From the NCBI GenBank assembly GCA_016926735.1, contig JAFGOA010000215.1:20578-84577 (forward strand): a stretch of 64,000 nt of DNA. The letters are read 5' to 3'. The notes beneath the pieces are model-generated. The model was not told the origin of the DNA. It searched no databases and saw only the letters and a program-made list of their open reading frames with translations. A program made the translations under genes and the position numbers. The stretch is from Promethearchaeota archaeon (GTDB lineage Archaea; Asgardarchaeota; Lokiarchaeia; Sigyniarchaeales; SOKP01). Positions 5,057 to 22,372 of the stretch are shown here, piece by piece. Every line of letters starts with the position of its first letter. Position 1 is the first letter of the stretch.

Positions 5057-6532
5057 ATGAAAATCACGGATTTCATGGCTTATGAGCTAATAGAACAAAT
5101 AAAAAACAAGGAATTAAAAATAATCGATATTATCCAACAAACTTATGAAAATATTGAGAAAGTTGAAAATTCTGTCCATTCTTTTGTTAGTTTATCGAAA
5201 GAAAAAGCAATTGAAAAAGCTAAAAATTTAGATAAACAAATTGAAAATAAAAAGCTAAAAGGAAAATTATTTGGTTTACCAATTGCAATTAAAGATTTAA
5301 TCTGTATTAAGGATAGTCCTACAACTTGCTGTTCTAAAATTCTTAAAGATTTTAAACCCCCTTATAATGCAACAATAATAGAAAGACTGTTAAATAATGA
5401 AAATGCTATTTGTGTTGGAAGGACCAATATGGATGAATTTGCTATGGGTAGTTCAACTGAAAATAGTTGTTATGGCCCCAGTTATAATCCATGGGATCTT
5501 GTAAGAGTTCCTGGAGGTTCTAGCGGAGGATCTGCTACCTCCGTTTCTTCCGGTCAGGTATTGTTTTCAATAGGTACAGATACCGGAGGAAGTATTAGAT
5601 GTCCTGCTTCTTATTGTGGAGTTGTTGGTCTGAAACCTACATATGGAAGAGTCTCTCGTTATGGTCTAATTTCCTATGCGAATTCTCTGGATGTAATTGG
5701 ACCTATAACTCATTGTGTTAAAGATACCGCTTTATTATTAGAAGTAATTGCTGGTAAAGATCCTCTAGATTCTACCTCTTTTGATATAAAAGTTGATGAT
5801 TATTCTCAAAATCTTGATCAATCAATCGAAAATAAAATACTTGGTGTTCCTAAAGAATTTTTCGGAGATGGAATTCAACCAAATGTAAAAAATAAGATTA
5901 ATGATACTATTAAATTGTCAGAGAAACTAGGAGCGGAAATAAAAGAGATAACTCTTCCTCATTTAGAATATACGATTCCCACCTATTATTTAATAGCGAT
6001 GAGTGAAGCTAGCTCGAATTTGGCTCGATTTGATGGATTGAGATATGGAGAAATGTATGATAATCCACAAAATGATGTTTTTGAAATTTTTAGTAAAACT
6101 AGAGGAGAAAAATTTGGAGAAGAAGTAAGACGTAGAATTATTTTAGGGACGTATACCTTATCCGCTGGATATTATGATATGTTTTATATAAAAGCTCTTA
6201 AAATAAGAACATTAATTAAACAAGATTTCAAAAATGCTTTTACTCAATGTGATGCAATTGTCTGTCCTACTATGCCAACAACAGCTTTCAAAATTGGAGA
6301 ATTAATAGATGATCCATTACAAATGTATTTAATGGATACTCTAACATGTCCTGTTAATTTGGCGGGATTGCCTGCATTATCTATACCATGTGGTTTTGAT
6401 AATAATAATTTACCAATTGGATTTCAGATCATTGGAAATTATTTTGATGAAAAGATGATTTTAAATATTGGATATTTAATTGAGAAAAAGTTAGATATTT
6501 ATAGAAAAATACCTCCATTATTAAAAAAATAG
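5057..6532 (+). CDS. gatA: Asp/Glu-tRNA amidotransferase subunit A
   Basis: GLPIAIKD, TNMDEFAMGSS, PGGSSGGSA, GTDTGGSIR amidase signature; SSNLARFDG, RRRIILGTY. Confidence 0.97.
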   Translation: MKITDFMAYELIEQIKNKELKIIDIIQQTYENIEKVENSVHSFVSLSKEKAIEKAKNLDKQIENKKLKGKLFGLPIAIKDLICIKDSPTTCCSKILKDFKPPYNATIIERLLNNENAICVGRTNMDEFAMGSSTENSCYGPSYNPWDLVRVPGGSSGGSATSVSSGQVLFSIGTDTGGSIRCPASYCGVVGLKPTYGRVSRYGLISYANSLDVIGPITHCVKDTALLLEVIAGKDPLDSTSFDIKVDDYSQNLDQSIENKILGVPKEFFGDGIQPNVKNKINDTIKLSEKLGAEIKEITLPHLEYTIPTYYLIAMSEASSNLARFDGLRYGEMYDNPQNDVFEIFSKTRGEKFGEEVRRRIILGTYTLSAGYYDMFYIKALKIRTLIKQDFKNAFTQCDAIVCPTMPTTAFKIGELIDDPLQMYLMDTLTCPVNLAGLPALSIPCGFDNNNLPIGFQIIGNYFDEKMILNIGYLIEKKLDIYRKIPPLLKK

Positions 6533-6568: not shown

Positions 6569-6901
6569 TTAACAGCAACATTTTTTATCAGTATTTTTTC
6601 TCTTATTACTAGCTCTTTGTCTTGCATCCCATAAACAACCACATCCTTTTTCTTCAACTAACAGTATTGCTTGTTCAGGACAATTTCTTTCACAAGCACT
6701 ACATTGTATACACAACTCAGGTTTATATATTTCATATTTATTGTTTAAATTGATTTTTGGAAGTCCAAATGGGCATATATCAGCACATAAACCGCAACCA
6801 ATACATTTAGATTGATTAATTGTTATTTTTATATTTATTAAATTTAAAATTTGTTTAGTTGTATTGGAATTACAACATGATGATTTTTCAGTCTCAGACA
6901 T
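6569..6901 (-). CDS. hgcB: HgcB-like 2[4Fe-4S] ferredoxin with C-terminal Cys cluster
   Basis: CIGCGLCADICP and CIQCSACERNCP, then KGCGC and terminal KKCCC; directly downstream of the hgcA-like gene. Confidence 0.82.
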   Translation of the reverse strand: MSETEKSSCCNSNTTKQILNLINIKITINQSKCIGCGLCADICPFGLPKINLNNKYEIYKPELCIQCSACERNCPEQAILLVEEKGCGCLWDARQRASNKRKNTDKKCCC

Positions 6902-6931
6902 TATTATTGTTTACCTCATATAATATAATGA

Positions 6932-8587
6932 TTAATAGTAAAATAAACTTATAGATGATAAAATTAAGGTAATTATCATAAGAATAATATTGATTTTTTT
7001 AAATATAGGATATTCAGATTGAATTTCTTTAGGATTTGTAGACATTGTGGATCCACTAAATGACATTGTAGAAAAGAAAGATATCCAGAAAAAAAGAGGA
7101 AGATTGAATAAAAGAAACTCTAAGGAGTTATGCATATAAAATATTAAAAATATCATTAAAATCATATTAATTAATCCAAAAAAAATACCTTTTATGATGA
7201 AATTTCGAGTAAATTCTGATAACGGATAAATTAGAATTAGTAATAAATTAGATAACACTAATGCACTAATAAAATCGATTATTAATAGTATCATGCTAAA
7301 ACCTAATAAGATACTAGTAATTAAATTCAAGAATAATAATCCAATTATTGGCAAAATAAATATCTTCCTCATCAAGAAAGATATATGCGATAAACCAGCT
7401 CTTATGCGATGATATAAAGTAAATTTAATTCTCTTCATTTTTTCTGTCTTTTTTTTTTCCATTAAGTATTGTTTTAAATATTTAGACCATATAGGTCCGT
7501 ATTTAACTTTATATGGAAATGTTTCTGAATTTTTAGGTAATTTAGGTAAAGCAATACCACCAGCAGATAATTGAGGAAGGATTAATTCTTTAGTTTTAAC
7601 ATAATTATGAAGTCCAGTTGCTTCCAGTGCCTCTAAGAGTTGTTTATTTTCAAAATCATCTCCTCGAGCAGCACACCAAACATTAATTCCATTTGAATCA
7701 ATACATAAAACCCATGCGTCAATACCTTTTAAATCTCGCATTAATTTTATATATGTAAATTCATAATTTCCTGTTACAATTATAGGTGAGTTTTCATTTG
7801 GCTCTCCCGATTTATATAAACCAGGTTCTTTTGGAACTTTATCCATTTGACCTGTGAATATACAACGATAGATCCTTAATTGAGCTCTAATACCCTTGAA
7901 GTTTTTTTGAGATGGTCTATAAAACCCAGGCAAATTTTCTTTTATATTTATTTTTTTTAGTTCAATAACTTGAATTGATCCATGATTCCATACTTTTTTT
8001 TCTATTATTTTGAATCCAATTGGTTCGAGATATTTAAAAAAATGTTTTAATATATAGGTTCCTTTCAATCTCAAACGTTTTAATTTTTTCTTAAACCACC
8101 ATCTGTTTAATTTAAATAATACATTCCAAAATCCTTTTGGTTGAAATTCCGCAGCTATCAAAATTCTCCCATTATTTTTCAATAAATCCCAACAATTTTT
8201 TAAGAAAATTTGTTGTTCAAATGGACGTAATTCTGATAACATAAAAGTACTAACAATAACATCCTGAGAATTAGGATCTATTGATAGTTGATTATATGTT
8301 CCCAGCCTATATTTTAAATTTTCATATTGATTGGGATTATAATTATTTTTAGCATATTCAATCATTTTTGGATTAATATCATATGCTATTATATTATTTG
8401 CTTTATTTGCTATTTTTCTTGCTAGTGTTCCAGGTCCACATCCTATCTCTATGATATTATCTTGAGGTTTTATTCTTTTTAAAATCCAATTGTAAATTTC
8501 AATGTTGACTTGTTTTGTTAATTTAGTAAAATTTCTTTCATATTCTCTGGGTTCTTCTTCTAATTTCTTCATATAAGTTACAGCCAA
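6932..8587 (-). CDS. hgcA: Fusion of class I SAM methyltransferase and HgcA-like corrinoid/membrane protein
   Basis: N-terminal ~210 aa has IIEIGCGPG and DINPKM. Then PGLYKSG.P..SPIIVTGNY, cap helix GINVWCAARG (nt 7661-7684), LILPQL..GG, YGP, 4-5 TM helices and FSGST near the C-terminus. TTG start. Confidence 0.85.
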   Translation of the reverse strand: MAVTYMKKLEEEPREYERNFTKLTKQVNIEIYNWILKRIKPQDNIIEIGCGPGTLARKIANKANNIIAYDINPKMIEYAKNNYNPNQYENLKYRLGTYNQLSIDPNSQDVIVSTFMLSELRPFEQQIFLKNCWDLLKNNGRILIAAEFQPKGFWNVLFKLNRWWFKKKLKRLRLKGTYILKHFFKYLEPIGFKIIEKKVWNHGSIQVIELKKINIKENLPGFYRPSQKNFKGIRAQLRIYRCIFTGQMDKVPKEPGLYKSGEPNENSPIIVTGNYEFTYIKLMRDLKGIDAWVLCIDSNGINVWCAARGDDFENKQLLEALEATGLHNYVKTKELILPQLSAGGIALPKLPKNSETFPYKVKYGPIWSKYLKQYLMEKKKTEKMKRIKFTLYHRIRAGLSHISFLMRKIFILPIIGLLFLNLITSILLGFSMILLIIDFISALVLSNLLLILIYPLSEFTRNFIIKGIFFGLINMILMIFLIFYMHNSLEFLLFNLPLFFWISFFSTMSFSGSTMSTNPKEIQSEYPIFKKINIILMIITLILSSISLFYY

Positions 8588-8646
8588 ATCTTATAAAACC
8601 TCTTATCAATTTCTAATAAATATTTTTTTTGAAATAAAAAAAAGTA

Positions 8647-8676
8647 TATTCAAATAAAAATATTTGGATTTGAATA
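8647..8676. promoter_or_regulatory. Candidate ArsR operator in the divergent hgcA-like/arsR promoter
   Basis: Perfect 9-bp inverted repeat TATTCAAAT-N12-ATTTGAATA overlapping an imperfect ATTCAAATA-N4-TATTTGGAT. Confidence 0.5.
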
Positions 8677-8723
8677 AATCTTTTTAAATTAAAGTAAATT
8701 ATTATGAATATAGAAATAATTAA

Positions 8724-9146
8724 ATGGTATATCTGATATTCATGAACACTCCTCGTCAAGAAAAAATTAAGGATATGATTTGTAATATAGAGCAATGTAA
8801 AGATATAGATAATTTCTTTGATAATTTAAGAATCTTAGGAAAAAAACTAAAAACTAATGAATTTATTAATAATCAAATTAAAATATTGAATATTTTTGCC
8901 AATAAAGAGAGATTAATGATTATCTATTCATTAATGGAGAAAGATCGTTGTGTCTGTGAACTAGAAGCAATATTGGATAAATCTCAACCTTCGATTTCGC
9001 ATCATCTAAAGAGGTTAGAGGATGTAAATCTTATTAGAGGTTGGAAGAAAAGTAAATTTACATATTACAGTCTTAATAAATCTCAATTAAAATCTTATAT
9101 TAATGATTATATATCATTTTTTGATTATGGTAAGGTAATACTTTAA
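8724..9146 (+). CDS. arsR: ArsR/SmtB metalloregulator (start may be ATG 8742)
   Basis: FANKERLMI, DRCVCELE (alpha3 Cys metal site), SQPSISHHLKRL, YYSL; extra N-terminal Cys pair. Confidence 0.9.
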   Translation: MVYLIFMNTPRQEKIKDMICNIEQCKDIDNFFDNLRILGKKLKTNEFINNQIKILNIFANKERLMIIYSLMEKDRCVCELEAILDKSQPSISHHLKRLEDVNLIRGWKKSKFTYYSLNKSQLKSYINDYISFFDYGKVIL

Positions 9147-9261
9147 GATTTTTTATAATTCTATTTAAAAAATCCACAAAATATACTTTTTTACAACTAG
9201 GTATTAAATTTAAATACAATGTAAATTTCTTTTGAGATTAAATATGTATGAGTAGATCAGA

Positions 9262-10704
9262 ATATTAGTAAGTAACATACTTCTATTAATTTGTTTTATT
9301 TCTGTTATTTTATTAATTTTAACTGAAAAATTAAATAGAGCAGTCGCAGCTTTAATGGGTGCGGTGATAGCTTATTTTATTTTAATTTTTATTGAAGGTT
9401 ATGATTTTTCAGTTATAGTTGATTTAATGTTTAGCACTAATGAAAATTATGTAAATTTACATTCGCTTATTTTAATAATTAGCATGATGATAATTGTGCA
9501 AATATCACATGAAGCAGGATTGTTTCAATTTATATCTATATATTTGATTAAATTTTCAAAAGGAAAACCAATTCCATTAATGATTATATTATGTTGTGTG
9601 ACTGTCTTAATTTCAGCGATTCTTAATAATATTTTAACAGTAATAATTCTAATCCCCCTTACTATAACTATATCAAGAATTCTTAATATAAATCCTACAC
9701 CTTATATTCTTACCCAAGCTATTTTGGTAAATGTTGGAGGTACATTATTTTCGATATCTTCAATTCCAAATATTTTAATAGTAACATATGCAGGAATAAG
9801 TTTTTTGGATTTTTTAATTAATGTAGGATTACTATCTTTATTGGTTTTTAGTCTTACTTTAGGATTTTTCATAATTTTATATAAAAAAGAAATGAAAATT
9901 CCAGAAGGATCTTTGAATGTTTTAAAGGAGTATAATGTTTGGAATGTTGTTCAAAGTAAAAAACTCTTATATCTCTCAATGATATCTTTATTATCATTAT
10001 TTTTTCTATTCATAGTTGTACCTTCAGATATAATATCCCCTGATATTATAGCTTTAACCTTAGGAGTTTTAATGATAATATTAAGTAAATTAGAACCAAA
10101 AGAAATATTCTCTAAAATTGACATTGAATTAATCCTTTATTTAATAGGAATCTTTGTTATTGCAGGCTCTCTAGAACTACTTAATGTTTTAGATATTGTA
10201 GGAGAATTTATTTCTCAAGTTGGAGGAGGAGATACATATGTTTTATTATTACTTGTTTTATGGATATCTGCTTTTTTGAGCTCTTCCATTGATAATATTC
10301 CTATAACAAAAGTGCTTATTCCTGTAATCGGTGAAATTCCAGGAATAACATCTGAAACAATAAGAAAAAGATTATATTATTCTCTCGCATTAGGTGCAAA
10401 TTGGGGGGACAATCTTACACCTCTTGGTGATAATATCCTTGTTGTAAATATTGCAGAACAGAATAAAAGGCCAATTTCATTCAAACAATTTATGAAGTTA
10501 GGATTTGTAACAACTATTTATCAATTGTTAATAATAACAATATATTTTACCCTTATTTTTAAATTTATAACAGGTATTATAATTTTATTTGTAATTATTG
10601 TTATAATTATTCTTATTTACTTTTTTATGAAAAAAGGTCCAAAAAAGATAAGAAATAAAACAATAAATACTCTATCTAATCTTAGACATTATATAATTAG
10701 GTGA
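9262..10704 (+). CDS. ArsB/NhaD (SLC13/P-protein-like) ion transporter; N-terminus extends upstream of ATG 9355
   Basis: SAILNN, NVGG..SI..IPNIL, SSSIDNIP, ALGANWGDNLTPLG, ~12 TMs. In-frame upstream sequence ILVSNILLLICFISVILLILTEKLNRAVAAL encodes TM1 and runs back to a TAG at 9253 with no ATG/GTG/TTG. Confidence 0.8.
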   Translation: MLVSNILLLICFISVILLILTEKLNRAVAALMGAVIAYFILIFIEGYDFSVIVDLMFSTNENYVNLHSLILIISMMIIVQISHEAGLFQFISIYLIKFSKGKPIPLMIILCCVTVLISAILNNILTVIILIPLTITISRILNINPTPYILTQAILVNVGGTLFSISSIPNILIVTYAGISFLDFLINVGLLSLLVFSLTLGFFIILYKKEMKIPEGSLNVLKEYNVWNVVQSKKLLYLSMISLLSLFFLFIVVPSDIISPDIIALTLGVLMIILSKLEPKEIFSKIDIELILYLIGIFVIAGSLELLNVLDIVGEFISQVGGGDTYVLLLLVLWISAFLSSSIDNIPITKVLIPVIGEIPGITSETIRKRLYYSLALGANWGDNLTPLGDNILVVNIAEQNKRPISFKQFMKLGFVTTIYQLLIITIYFTLIFKFITGIIILFVIIVIIILIYFFMKKGPKKIRNKTINTLSNLRHYIIR

Positions 10705-10710
10705 TAATAA

Positions 10711-11346
10711 ATAGTATTCAAAAGTATTGAAAGAATTAAAAACTCTTTACCCGAAATAGTACATATTGTAATGTTTTACAATAATGGTATAGTATTCCAA
10801 ACAACATTCTCTCACGATGAGATAAATATTCCTAAATTGGGAGAACATATTTCTGAATTATTAAATCAAATTCGGGCTGTTTATACTATCTGTAATATCG
10901 AAATACAGAATTATAATAAATTAATATTTGAAACCGAAAATATTTCAACAATTGTTCTCAAACTTGGAGAAGATAGTAATATTGCTCTTTTTTTTAAGAA
11001 TGAGGATACTAAAGAACTTAAAATTAAATCAATTCAACGATATCTTAATCGAATTGAAGAACTTATTGATATGGATGCCAAAGAACTGATCCTTCAAGAA
11101 ATCTTAGTCGAGGAAAATAACATTAAAGATCTTCAGATTATTTTAGATTCAAAATATAATGAAATAAAAGAAATTAAATCCGAATTGGGTAATATATCAG
11201 AAGAAGAGAATCTTCAAAATTTGGATACTAAGGTAAGTAAAGAATACGAACAACTTGAAAAAGATTGTAAGAATATAGAAAAAGAAATTTTAAATAAAAA
11301 GGAAAAGATTCAAAGTCTGAAAAAAAAGATGAATGAAGAGAATTAA
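10711..11346 (+). CDS. Roadblock/LC7-like domain plus C-terminal coiled coil; probable ATA start
   Basis: AGGTGA at 10699-10704, ATA at 10711 directly after in-frame TAA; IERIKNSLPEIVHIVMFYNNG..KLIFETENISTIVLKL fits a Roadblock-like pattern; E/K-rich heptad tail. Confidence 0.6.
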   Translation: MVFKSIERIKNSLPEIVHIVMFYNNGIVFQTTFSHDEINIPKLGEHISELLNQIRAVYTICNIEIQNYNKLIFETENISTIVLKLGEDSNIALFFKNEDTKELKIKSIQRYLNRIEELIDMDAKELILQEILVEENNIKDLQIILDSKYNEIKEIKSELGNISEEENLQNLDTKVSKEYEQLEKDCKNIEKEILNKKEKIQSLKKKMNEEN

Positions 11347-20917: not shown

Positions 20918-22372
20918 TTGATTTTGATGTCTGAAACTAAAGTTATTATTGGTCTTGAAGTACATATTCAATTGACAAATCTTAATACAAAACTATTCTG
21001 TGGTTGTAATAGTGATTATCGGGGAAAAGAACAAAATACATTAGTTTGTCCAATTTGTTTAGGATTACCAGGTTCACTACCAGTTCTAAATGAAAAGGCA
21101 ATAGAATTTGCAACGAGGTTAGCTCTTGCTTTAAATTGTAAGATAAATGAAGAATTTTGGTTTTTTAGAAAGAATTATTTCTATCCAGATCTTCCTAAAG
21201 CATTTCAAATAAGTCAATATAATAAAGCTGGAGGAAAAGCTTTTGGAGATGGTGGAACTATAAAAATTCGATTAGACGGAGAAAAAAAAGAGATTAACCT
21301 AGATAGAATTCATTTAGAAGAGGATCCTGCAAAATTAGTCCATAAAGGAAGTATTGCGTCATCACCATATACACTTGTGGATTATAATCGTTCTGGAATT
21401 TCACTTATAGAAATAGTATCTCAACCAGTAATGAAATCTCCAGAAGAAGCAAGAGAGTTTTTAAATCAATTAAAATCTATTATACAATATACTGAAATTG
21501 CAGATTTGAATTTGGAAGGATCAGTAAGAGTGGATGCTAATATTTCAATTGAAGGTAATCCTCGTTCAGAGGTTAAGAATATAAATAGTTTTAAAGAAGT
21601 TGAGCGAGCATTAAAATGGGAGATACAAAGGCAACGAAATGCAATAAAACGAGGGAAAGAACTCATTCAAGAAACAAGACATTGGGATGATAAAAGAAGA
21701 ATTACTATTGGATTAAGAACAAAAGAATTTGAGAAAGATTATCGATACTTTCCTGAACAAGATCTAGTTCCAATCAATATAGATGGAAAATATGTGGAAA
21801 ATATAAAAAAGAACCTTCCAGAAATGCCTGATCAACGAATGAAAAGAATTCAGGAACAATATGGATTATCTGAATTTGATTCTGAAATATTAGTTCTTGA
21901 TAAAAATATAGCAGATTTTTTTGAAGAAGGAGTAAAAGAAATTGAAGTATTAGGCCAAGAAGGATTTAAATTATTTTGTAATTGGTTAATGGGAGATATT
22001 TCTCGATGGTTAAATGAAAATAATAAAAATATTAATGAAACACAATTACAACCACATCAAATATCTAAATTAATAGAATATATAGATAAAGGGAAAATAA
22101 CGGGAAAGATTGCAAAAAGCTTTATTAATGATATGATGAAAGGTATTCCTGTAGAGGAAATATTAGAGAAAACAGGTAAACAAAGGATAGCAGATGAAAA
22201 AACGCTCTCTAAAATTATAGATGATGTATTTCAAGAAAACCCCGAAATAGTTAAAGATTATAAAAGAAATCCACGAGCATTAGAAGCATTAATAGGTAAA
22301 TGTATGCAAAAAACTAGAGGACAAGCTGATCCAAATATTACACGCAATTTAATTTTAGAAAAAATTAAATAA
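20918..22372 (+). CDS. gatB: Asp/Glu-tRNA amidotransferase subunit B (likely start ATG 20927)
   Basis: IGLEVH, CPICLGLPGSLP, RKNYFYPDLPK, HLEED, RVDANIS, EVKNINS, QETR, DYRYFPE. Confidence 0.97.
   Translation: MILMSETKVIIGLEVHIQLTNLNTKLFCGCNSDYRGKEQNTLVCPICLGLPGSLPVLNEKAIEFATRLALALNCKINEEFWFFRKNYFYPDLPKAFQISQYNKAGGKAFGDGGTIKIRLDGEKKEINLDRIHLEEDPAKLVHKGSIASSPYTLVDYNRSGISLIEIVSQPVMKSPEEAREFLNQLKSIIQYTEIADLNLEGSVRVDANISIEGNPRSEVKNINSFKEVERALKWEIQRQRNAIKRGKELIQETRHWDDKRRITIGLRTKEFEKDYRYFPEQDLVPINIDGKYVENIKKNLPEMPDQRMKRIQEQYGLSEFDSEILVLDKNIADFFEEGVKEIEVLGQEGFKLFCNWLMGDISRWLNENNKNINETQLQPHQISKLIEYIDKGKITGKIAKSFINDMMKGIPVEEILEKTGKQRIADEKTLSKIIDDVFQENPEIVKDYKRNPRALEALIGKCMQKTRGQADPNITRNLILEKIK

Follow-up and report, generated by a model that had tools for sequence, protein, structure and literature searches.

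A CpaM-type methyltransferase fused to an HgcA-like corrinoid protein in Asgard archaea, with an HgcB-like ferredoxin partner and relatives in arsenic-resistance operons

We describe here a two-gene module in a 64,000-nucleotide (nt) stretch of Asgard archaeal DNA (contig JAFGOA010000215.1 of assembly GCA_016926735.1, a Promethearchaeota archaeon; G+C content about 24%), which we refer to throughout as the window. A single open reading frame (ORF) joins a CpaM-type class I S-adenosylmethionine (SAM) methyltransferase to an HgcA-like corrinoid-binding domain and a five-helix transmembrane (TM) domain, and the next gene encodes an HgcB-like ferredoxin. The fusion is confirmed as a real and widely conserved protein, found well beyond the genome in which we encountered it. 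We propose, with a probability that we would place at roughly 45%, that the two polypeptides make up a three-part methyl-transfer machine of the HgcAB superfamily, which would pass methyl groups from SAM by way of a Co(I) corrinoid to a metal(loid) as part of arsenic handling. An initial annotation, made from the letters of the window, had pointed to the fusion, the ferredoxin, a divergently transcribed ArsR and a permease; all four genes are present in the places that it gave. The features of the module are as follows (window coordinates; aa, amino acids):

6569-6901, minus strand: HgcB-like ferredoxin, 110 aa, two [4Fe-4S] clusters; GCGC(L/I)W is invariant and the C-terminus is a tail of Cys residues (CCC)
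6932-8587, minus strand: CpaM::HgcA-like fusion protein, 551 aa, with a TTG start; N-terminal MAVxYM conserved in homologues
7943-8587, minus strand: CpaM-type class I SAM methyltransferase domain of the fusion, aa 1-215, with GxGxG (G49/G51/G53) at nt 8429-8443 and the invariant acidic residue D70
7418-7882, minus strand: HgcA-like corrinoid-binding domain of the fusion, aa 236-390, with cap helix N302-V303-W304-C305 (Cys305 codon at nt 7673-7675)
6935-7417, minus strand: five-helix TM domain of the fusion, aa 391-551, with AlphaFold2 helices at 391-428, 433-459, 463-486, 489-513 and 519-550
8588-8723: ArsR/fusion intergenic region
8649-8674: candidate ArsR operator TTCAAAT-N12-ATTTGAA, in the divergent intergenic region
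8724-9146, plus strand: ArsR/SmtB metalloregulator with an alpha3 CVC motif and N-terminal Cys residues; the alignment suggests that translation truly begins at the ATG at 8742

Domains and structure of the fusion and its ferredoxin partner

The N-terminal part of the fusion is matched most specifically by the NCBIfam model for corrinoid-protein-associated methyltransferases (CpaM, NF043040), to which residues 4-211 align over positions 3-215 of 216 with a score of 134.9 bits (E 2.5e-39), short of that model's cut-off of 180 bits. The next-best methyltransferase family reaches 50 bits, about 85 bits lower than CpaM, and the ArsM model gives this domain 45.8 bits against a cut-off of 263. Because the NF043040 match stands so far above those to other methyltransferase families, the remark in the initial annotation that the N-terminus resembles a corrinoid-protein-associated methyltransferase proves correct. 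The domain also has intact SAM-binding motifs and a covalent link to an HgcA-type corrinoid protein, both hallmarks of the CpaM family.

Over residues 250-544 the fusion matches both HgcA (NF040863; 185.6 bits, cut-off 275) and HgcAB_like (NF043039; 181.9 bits, cut-off 285), with positions 31-319 of the 325 in the HgcA model aligned, TM part included. If the HgcAB_like model is read across the fusion and ferredoxin genes, through two TAA codons, the score rises to 222.7 bits, still below 285. Pfam places a CdhD/corrinoid iron-sulfur protein (CFeSP) corrinoid domain (PF03599) at residues 237-342 (58.8 bits). The cap helix reads GINVWCAARGDDF and contains Cys305; its core, NVWCAARG, keeps the Cys and has RG in place of the canonical GK, and the N(V/I)WC(A/S)(A/G/S)GK motif of canonical HgcA is therefore absent. 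The defining combination of a CFeSP-type corrinoid domain with a C-terminal five-helix TM domain is present. Among 56 homologues at 24-70% identity, G49/G51/G53, D70 and N302-V303-W304-C305 are all invariant.

An AlphaFold2 model built from the homologue alignment (predicted local distance difference test, pLDDT, 91.5; predicted template modelling score, pTM, 0.88) shows five TM helices at 391-550, and its scores are consistent with a single compact multi-domain body. Its closest structural counterpart is HgcAB model 9a0b_A, which has been published (E 2.9e-13, TMt 0.64); the corrinoid domain aligns to the C-terminal domain of the CFeSP gamma subunit (PDB 2h9a_A, E 2.2e-07), and the N-terminal part matches generic class I/Rossmann methyltransferase folds. 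A sequence search of the PDB with the fusion returned matches limited to CFeSP gamma subunits and generic methyltransferases. Taken together, the NCBIfam and Pfam matches and the predicted helices bear out the annotated joining of a class I SAM methyltransferase, an HgcA-like corrinoid domain and a TM region in one ORF.

The ferredoxin carries two CX2CX2CX3CP motifs followed by GCGCLW, and its C-terminal end is KKCCC. Its best NCBIfam match is HgcB (NF040864), at 50.8 bits against a cut-off of 99, and its cluster motifs, CIGCGLC and CIQCSAC, depart from the HgcB motif C(M/I)ECGAC. The wider hallmarks of HgcB are all present, namely a pair of [4Fe-4S] motifs, a further Cys beyond cluster II and two Cys residues at the C-terminus. 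Conservation across 32-35 orthologues extends to C33/36/39/43, C64/67/70/74, G86-C87-G88-C89 and the C-terminal CCC, and the orthologue alignment shows the two cluster motifs, a GCGC(L/I)W that does not vary and a tail of CC, CxC or CCC. An HgcB-like gene lies directly downstream of the fusion in 30/30 loci with short flanks, in 35 of 42 loci by clustering and in 24/24 named Asgard loci by tblastn. Family match, Cys motifs and conserved position thus all uphold the identification of the next gene as an HgcB-like ferredoxin.

A complex of fusion residues 236-551 with the ferredoxin was modelled from our own alignments, and gave an interaction prediction score from aligned errors (ipSAE) of 0.64, compared with 0.00 for the best control. 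This mark is reached by 58 of 80 solved complexes and by 2 of 110 mismatched pairs, counts that hold only roughly for alignments such as ours. The runs agree in at least 94% of contacts, with a partner pLDDT of at least 73, and the predicted interface includes cap-helix residues 304-310 and ferredoxin residues 84-94. The prediction supports binding of the ferredoxin to the HgcA-like part of the fusion.

The initial annotation had raised the prospect that the fusion was an artefact of assembly, and its distribution speaks to the contrary. More than 120 full-length protein clusters (545-578 aa, 55-70% identity to the fusion) come from sources named Promethearchaeota/Lokiarchaeota, Hod-, Hermod-, Odin- and Heimdallarchaeota. 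In a search of 400 Asgard genomes, about 125 of the 150 matches listed are colinear over nearly all 551 residues and free of stops, with identities of 50-70% within the window organism's own taxonomic family, 43-50% within its order and 30-36% in other families; named carriers include closed chromosomes and one metagenome-assembled genome (MAG) of a Promethearchaeum sp. The system is not unique to the window genome; it is a phylum-wide family with bacterial cousins.

Two further observations concern this distribution. Methyltransferase-fused HgcA-like genes occur in Anaerolineae/Chloroflexota, Poribacteria, Nitrospiria and a deltaproteobacterial MAG (L137-L155, L193). In addition, some Asgard genomes carry a second HgcA-type paralogue beside the fusion (G143:C1:2413112-2413468, L104; G319:C1:1075096-1075452, L113; G067:C1:2146823-2147164, L103), one of these being HgcAB-like (365 aa) and two standalone (320-321 aa). 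Since the fusion and other HgcA-type lineages coexist in one genome, they probably differ in function.

Placement among HgcA-type proteins

Four architectures occur among the 150 representatives surveyed: HgcA on its own (about 330-370 aa), in which the cap is almost always NVWCAAGKGTFG; HgcA-HgcB fusions (about 362-383 aa); methyltransferase-HgcA fusions of the window type (about 520-576 aa); and methyltransferase-HgcA-HgcB triple fusions (582-644 aa). The canonical cap GK is missing from all three fused types. Triple fusions pass the CpaM and HgcAB-like cut-offs both, double HgcA-HgcB fusions pass the HgcAB-like cut-off, and just upstream of one of these double fusions lies a separate 222-aa CpaM (267.5 bits). 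One relative with the architecture of the window protein (P0139) passes the CpaM cut-off at 230.6 bits, and true HgcA representatives score 387-420 bits on NF040863. The CpaM, HgcA and HgcB modules are therefore found linked in three states (CpaM and HgcAB-like as separate genes, the triple fusion, and CpaM-HgcA with HgcB), and on this comparison three independent fusion states tie the modules together.

To place the fusion, we built a tree from an alignment of 92 rows and 311 columns that covers the corrinoid and TM parts (IQ-TREE in quick mode with posterior mean site frequencies, PMSF; CdhE C-terminal domains as outgroup). All HgcA-type proteins split from CdhE with a support of 99 in the Shimodaira-Hasegawa-like approximate likelihood ratio test (SH-aLRT). 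The corrinoid domain is thus of HgcA type and not of the CdhD/CdhE type, a grouping that the initial annotation had named as fatal to its proposal. Canonical HgcA forms a clade of its own (SH-aLRT 100, 32 rows), as do the HgcAB-like proteins with the triple fusions (SH-aLRT 95, 17 rows), and the window fusion lies outside both, in a third, methyltransferase-fused clade (28 rows, SH-aLRT 93) with an inner clade of 22 rows supported at 99. The quick tree leaves the order of the canonical, HgcAB-like and methyltransferase-fused lineages unsettled, and we claim no evolutionary direction. Because the clades exclude it, the fusion is placed as neither a canonical HgcA nor a member of the HgcAB-like group, and in this tree represents a third lineage beside both. 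Nor does its cap motif appear on the list by which true hgcA is recognised in metagenomes (PMC10087281).

Comparison with known systems brings out the same position. The CpaM plus HgcAB-like cassette (NF043040 with NF043039; called 'fused HgcAB' by Podar et al. 2015, with Pyrococcus furiosus as an example) has the same three modules, and shares with the window system a cap-helix Cys without GK and a ferredoxin with two [4Fe-4S] clusters. However, the cassette fuses the ferredoxin to the corrinoid protein, whereas the window fuses the methyltransferase instead and keeps the ferredoxin as a separate gene; the window's TM domain is of full HgcA length, with five helices, its corrinoid domain lies outside the HgcAB-like clade and its scores fall below all curated cut-offs. 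Canonical HgcA/HgcB (NF040863/NF040864) resembles the window pair in that its two genes stand in the same order and encode a corrinoid domain of CFeSP gamma descent, an N-V-W-C cap, five TM helices and a ferredoxin with extra Cys residues and a C-terminal Cys pair, and in its frequent ArsR linkage (10.1101/2022.10.17.512643). As the initial annotation had said, canonical HgcA has no methyltransferase domain, and we found a CpaM domain within 4 kb in 0/35 canonical loci, whereas the window fusion carries one; the cap is ...CAAGK in canonical HgcA and ...CAARG in the window (PMC10087281), and C(M/I)ECGAC of canonical HgcB contrasts with CIGCGLC in the window ferredoxin. A further likeness is to ArsM, a class I SAM methyltransferase encoded in ArsR/ACR3 operons. 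ArsM acts on As(III) directly, without corrinoid, ferredoxin or membrane anchor. The CFeSP gamma subunit (CdhE/AcsC), finally, has a homologous corrinoid-binding domain but lacks the cap-helix Cys, the TM domain and the SAM methyltransferase, all three of which the window fusion has; the genome's true CdhE is encoded elsewhere (contig C109, 331 bits) and belongs to the outgroup of the tree (SH-aLRT 99).

The association of CpaM with HgcAB-like proteins is already catalogued, because NCBIfam names both families; our literature search found no paper on CpaM or on a methyltransferase-HgcA fusion. Asgard sequences were placed in the fused-HgcAB subtree by Lin et al. 2023, with the first 327 alignment columns removed (PMC10083202), and such N-terminal trimming in published trees (PMC10087281, PMC10083202) would hide the methyltransferase.

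Gene neighbourhood and candidate regulation

To survey gene order, ORFs were called in the 8-kb flanks of 42 loci and clustered, and the cluster representatives were annotated. The commonest order, seen in seven genera of two families, is a divergent ArsR followed, on the strand of the fusion, by DUF166 (in some loci), ACR3, ArsM (in some), the fusion, HgcB, two small unknown proteins, an ArsC-like gene (in some) and YdjM. ACR3 stands immediately upstream of the fusion on the same strand in 14 of the 42 loci (7 genera, 2 families), its identity resting on TIGR00832 (281.9 bits in one locus, and 294.5 bits for the copy in the window's own genome). An ArsR (cluster 2) is found in 21 loci, an ArsM in 3-4 (NF008823, 347 bits against a cut-off of 263), directly beside the fusion in some relatives, and a thioredoxin-type ArsC-like gene in 4-5 (TIGR02691, 130 bits, below the cut-off of 174). 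In Thorarchaeota arsR is co-directional with the fusion, directly upstream and abutting it. We discounted apparent ArsM tblastn matches inside fusion genes, which are cross-matches to the CpaM domain, and did not accept a neighbouring flavin mononucleotide (FMN) reductase as ArsH, its matches being weak and of WrbA type alone. Among the lineages compared, the ars-operon context is restricted to the Asgard one; ACR3 lies near 4 of 35 canonical hgcA loci.

Because related archaea hold the gene pair in arsenic-resistance operons, its natural substrate appears more likely to be arsenic than mercury, and the guess of the initial annotation to that effect gains comparative support from the ArsR/ACR3/ArsM/ArsC setting. 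For canonical hgcAB, a regulator resembling ArsR that responds to As and to S-adenosylhomocysteine (SAH) controls expression, and loss of the genes raised sensitivity to As(V) (bioRxiv 10.1101/2022.10.17.512643). In the window's own genome, contig C109 carries a divergent ArsR followed by ACR3, a small gene of cluster c8 and an ArsC-like gene, without the fusion/HgcB pair, and no ArsM in that genome scores above the cut-off. The pair lies in the window together with its own ArsR paralogue, between gatA and gatB, as it does in a genome of the same genus (G158).

The divergent upstream gene is a CVC-type ArsR, as annotated: it scores 73.3 bits on the ArsR/SmtB model NF033788 (cut-off 55) and carries DRCVCELE, and (D/E)RCVCELE together with an N-terminal C.C..C is common to the ArsRs that adjoin the fusion in relatives. 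In the intergenic region, TTCAAAT-N12-ATTTGAA has its one exact occurrence in the window, where chance would give 0.21, and a near-identical 26-nt element lies upstream of arsR in G158 and in at least four other genomes. A looser palindrome, with one error allowed per arm, is common in this AT-rich DNA (212 of 1329 background windows) and was rejected as evidence; we used the extended 26-nt similarity alone, by which the palindrome at 8649-8674 is a candidate ArsR operator. A search of the window against Rfam gave no RNA family at threshold. The data sets listed as containing the stretch include no RNA set, the probable source sediment metagenome being the only one, and metatranscriptomes of that sediment study contain next to none of the stretch's sequence words.

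Other genes recur in these neighbourhoods. A DUF166 protein (PF02593, 103 bits) sits between ArsR and ACR3 in 9 of the 42 loci (L049:3227-3973; L052:6135-6917) and is a recurrent ars-operon member in these archaea. Two clusters of small proteins, c6 (about 90-150 aa) and c8 (about 80-120 aa), follow HgcB in 11-12 of the 42 loci (L052:10027-10455, L052:10515-10832) and have no Pfam or NCBIfam hit; a c8 homologue is retained in the separate ACR3 operon of the window's own genome (L099:7015-7329). These small proteins may be unrecognised arsenic-related components.

The genes that flank the module in the window are as follows:

5057-6532, plus strand: gatA
9355-10704, plus strand: SLC13/CitMHS-type permease, adjoining the module and outside its conserved part
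10771-11346: 191-aa Lys/Glu-rich protein with no Pfam hit, directly after the permease
about 20927-22354: gatB

The module separates gatA from gatB, a layout shared with G158 (L080). There the module alone lies between the two genes, with gatB directly beside arsR; the window has about 11.5 kb extra between arsR and gatB (the permease, a major facilitator superfamily transporter, a methyltransferase and others). The permease belongs to the ion transporter (IT) superfamily (CitMHS PF03600, 206 bits; ArsB PF02040, 46 bits) and falls well short of the ArsB cut-offs (NF011980, 83.7 bits versus 457; TIGR00935, 67.1 versus 415). Orthologues with 60-68% identity are present in Loki-, Thor-, Heimdall-, Hod- and Hermodarchaeota, under the names SLC13 family permease or NhaD/arsenite-permease-like; three orthologue contexts have no ArsR, no fusion and no ars neighbours, and the permease is absent beside the module in 41/41 other fusion loci, same genus included. 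Because its orthologues occur without the module and G158 has gatB directly beside arsR, the permease owes its place next to the module to local rearrangement; it is a conserved SLC13/CitMHS gene of housekeeping type, and synteny rules it out as a member of the system. Of the linked ArsB/NhaD permease in the initial annotation, the gene and its position thus stand, but neither the assignment to ArsB nor a conserved tie to the module does. In the three orthologue contexts, as in the window, the permease is followed by a small gene (about 125-210 aa) without a Pfam match, and this position and size suggest that the two may form a conserved pair.

Proposed mechanism and alternatives

From the sequences we infer cobamide binding, SAM as the methyl donor, the direction of transfer, the identity of the substrate and control by ArsR, in a mechanism of the following form. 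The N-terminal CpaM domain would bind SAM and methylate the Co(I) corrinoid held on the HgcA-like domain, with cap-helix Cys305 as the presumed lower ligand of the cobalt. The resulting methyl-Co(III) would hand its methyl group to a thiophilic metal(loid), and the HgcB-like ferredoxin would reduce the cobalt back to Co(I) and present the substrate through its GCGC and C-terminal Cys motifs. The five-helix domain would anchor the machine in the membrane, and the CVC-type ArsR, acting at the palindrome in the shared promoter region, would control expression. The substrate would most likely be As(III), or methylated or related metalloid species, and not Hg(II).

Several points weigh against this proposal. 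To our knowledge, methylation of a protein-bound cobalt centre has not been described for any class I SAM methyltransferase. The N-terminus of the window's ArsR, MICNIEQC, has lost the middle Cys of C.C..C, and ArsR-family regulators can also sense SAH or other metals. The window genome has moved the fusion/HgcB pair out of the ACR3 operon; in one genus the order is MarR, FMN reductase, fusion and HgcB, all on one strand, with no ars genes; and ArsR or ACR3 was found in 0 of 21 bacterial methyltransferase-fused loci (Anaerolineae, Poribacteria and others). In addition, ArsM and the fusion occur together in some operons, which makes simple redundancy with As(III) methylation unlikely; the fusion may carry out a non-redundant step, or its true substrate may be another arsenic species or another element.

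Of the alternatives, the one that survives best, though we consider it unlikely, is that the substrate is no metal(loid) but a membrane-soluble organic molecule or thiol, the ars neighbourhood reflecting shared regulation or chance operon growth. Many loci have no ars genes, among them those with MarR and FMN reductase, the bacterial fused loci and the contexts of P0205 and P0141, and the window genome itself has parted the pair from ACR3. Such an account sits poorly, however, with the presence of ACR3 directly upstream and on the same strand in 7 genera, and with the ArsR found beside the pair in two distinct Asgard clades whose gene orders differ. In the complex model, moreover, the cap helix is contacted by the invariant GCGC and the Cys tail of the ferredoxin, which fits delivery of a thiophilic substrate.

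It is quite improbable, in our estimate, that the methyltransferase domain serves only to prime the cofactor or restore it, remethylating inactive Co(II) reductively in the manner of MetH reactivation, with a different routine donor such as a methyl-pterin acting via a separately encoded enzyme. The SAM-dependent reactivation of corrinoid enzymes established for MetH is a precedent, flavin/FMN reductase genes adjoin the pair in some genera, and the genome has a Wood-Ljungdahl CFeSP, so that methyl-pterin chemistry is present. Yet no pterin- or corrinoid-type methyltransferase recurs in the 42 neighbourhoods, CpaM is the sole obligate partner across all three fusion states, and the MetH activation domain has a different fold.

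We give little credence to the possibility that the pair is a functional mercury methylase whose fused methyltransferase merely supplies methyl groups from SAM. The cap-helix Cys, the five TM helices and the Cys-tailed ferredoxin are all present, HgcAB model 9a0b_A is the best structural match, and canonical hgcAB is itself tied to ArsR and arsenic (10.1101/2022.10.17.512643), with ACR3 near some canonical loci as noted above. Nevertheless, the fusion scores 185.6 bits where the HgcA cut-off is 275, the canonical clade (SH-aLRT 100) excludes it, the six cap motifs accepted for true HgcA do not include NVWCAARG (PMC10087281), tested organisms with non-canonical fused HgcAB make no methylmercury (PMC4646819, PMC10087281), and the 42 contexts showed no mer genes. 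The fusion is almost certainly no product of misassembly or faulty gene calling, nor a pseudogene in decay, given the uninterrupted colinear matches among those listed (closed chromosomes included), the invariance of the catalytic residues and the confident full-length model.

Since hgcAB were found in 2013, the purpose of HgcAB and the source of its cobalt-bound methyl group have both been open questions. The architecture of the fusion suggests an answer on methyl loading, in that a SAM methyltransferase is joined to the corrinoid protein, and the gene neighbourhood (ArsR, ACR3, ArsM, ArsC) points to an answer on what HgcAB is for. There is also a practical consequence, as counts of hgcA in sediments based on motifs or hidden Markov models can pick up Asgard fusion genes. 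The genus Promethearchaeum has a cultured member; with the family present in a Promethearchaeum sp. MAG, induction and arsenic-speciation experiments may therefore be feasible. A bolder reading, which we hold only tentatively and regard as doubtful, is that these proteins are an enzyme class not characterised before, in which a Cys-ligated corrinoid methyltransferase, bound to the membrane, receives its methyl group in cis from a class I SAM methyltransferase; they would then provide ArsM-independent anaerobic methylation of arsenic or another metalloid in Asgard archaea and reflect an ancestral arsenic-related role, canonical HgcAB being derived by loss of CpaM. If that were true, the native function of HgcAB and its methyl donor would become directly testable.

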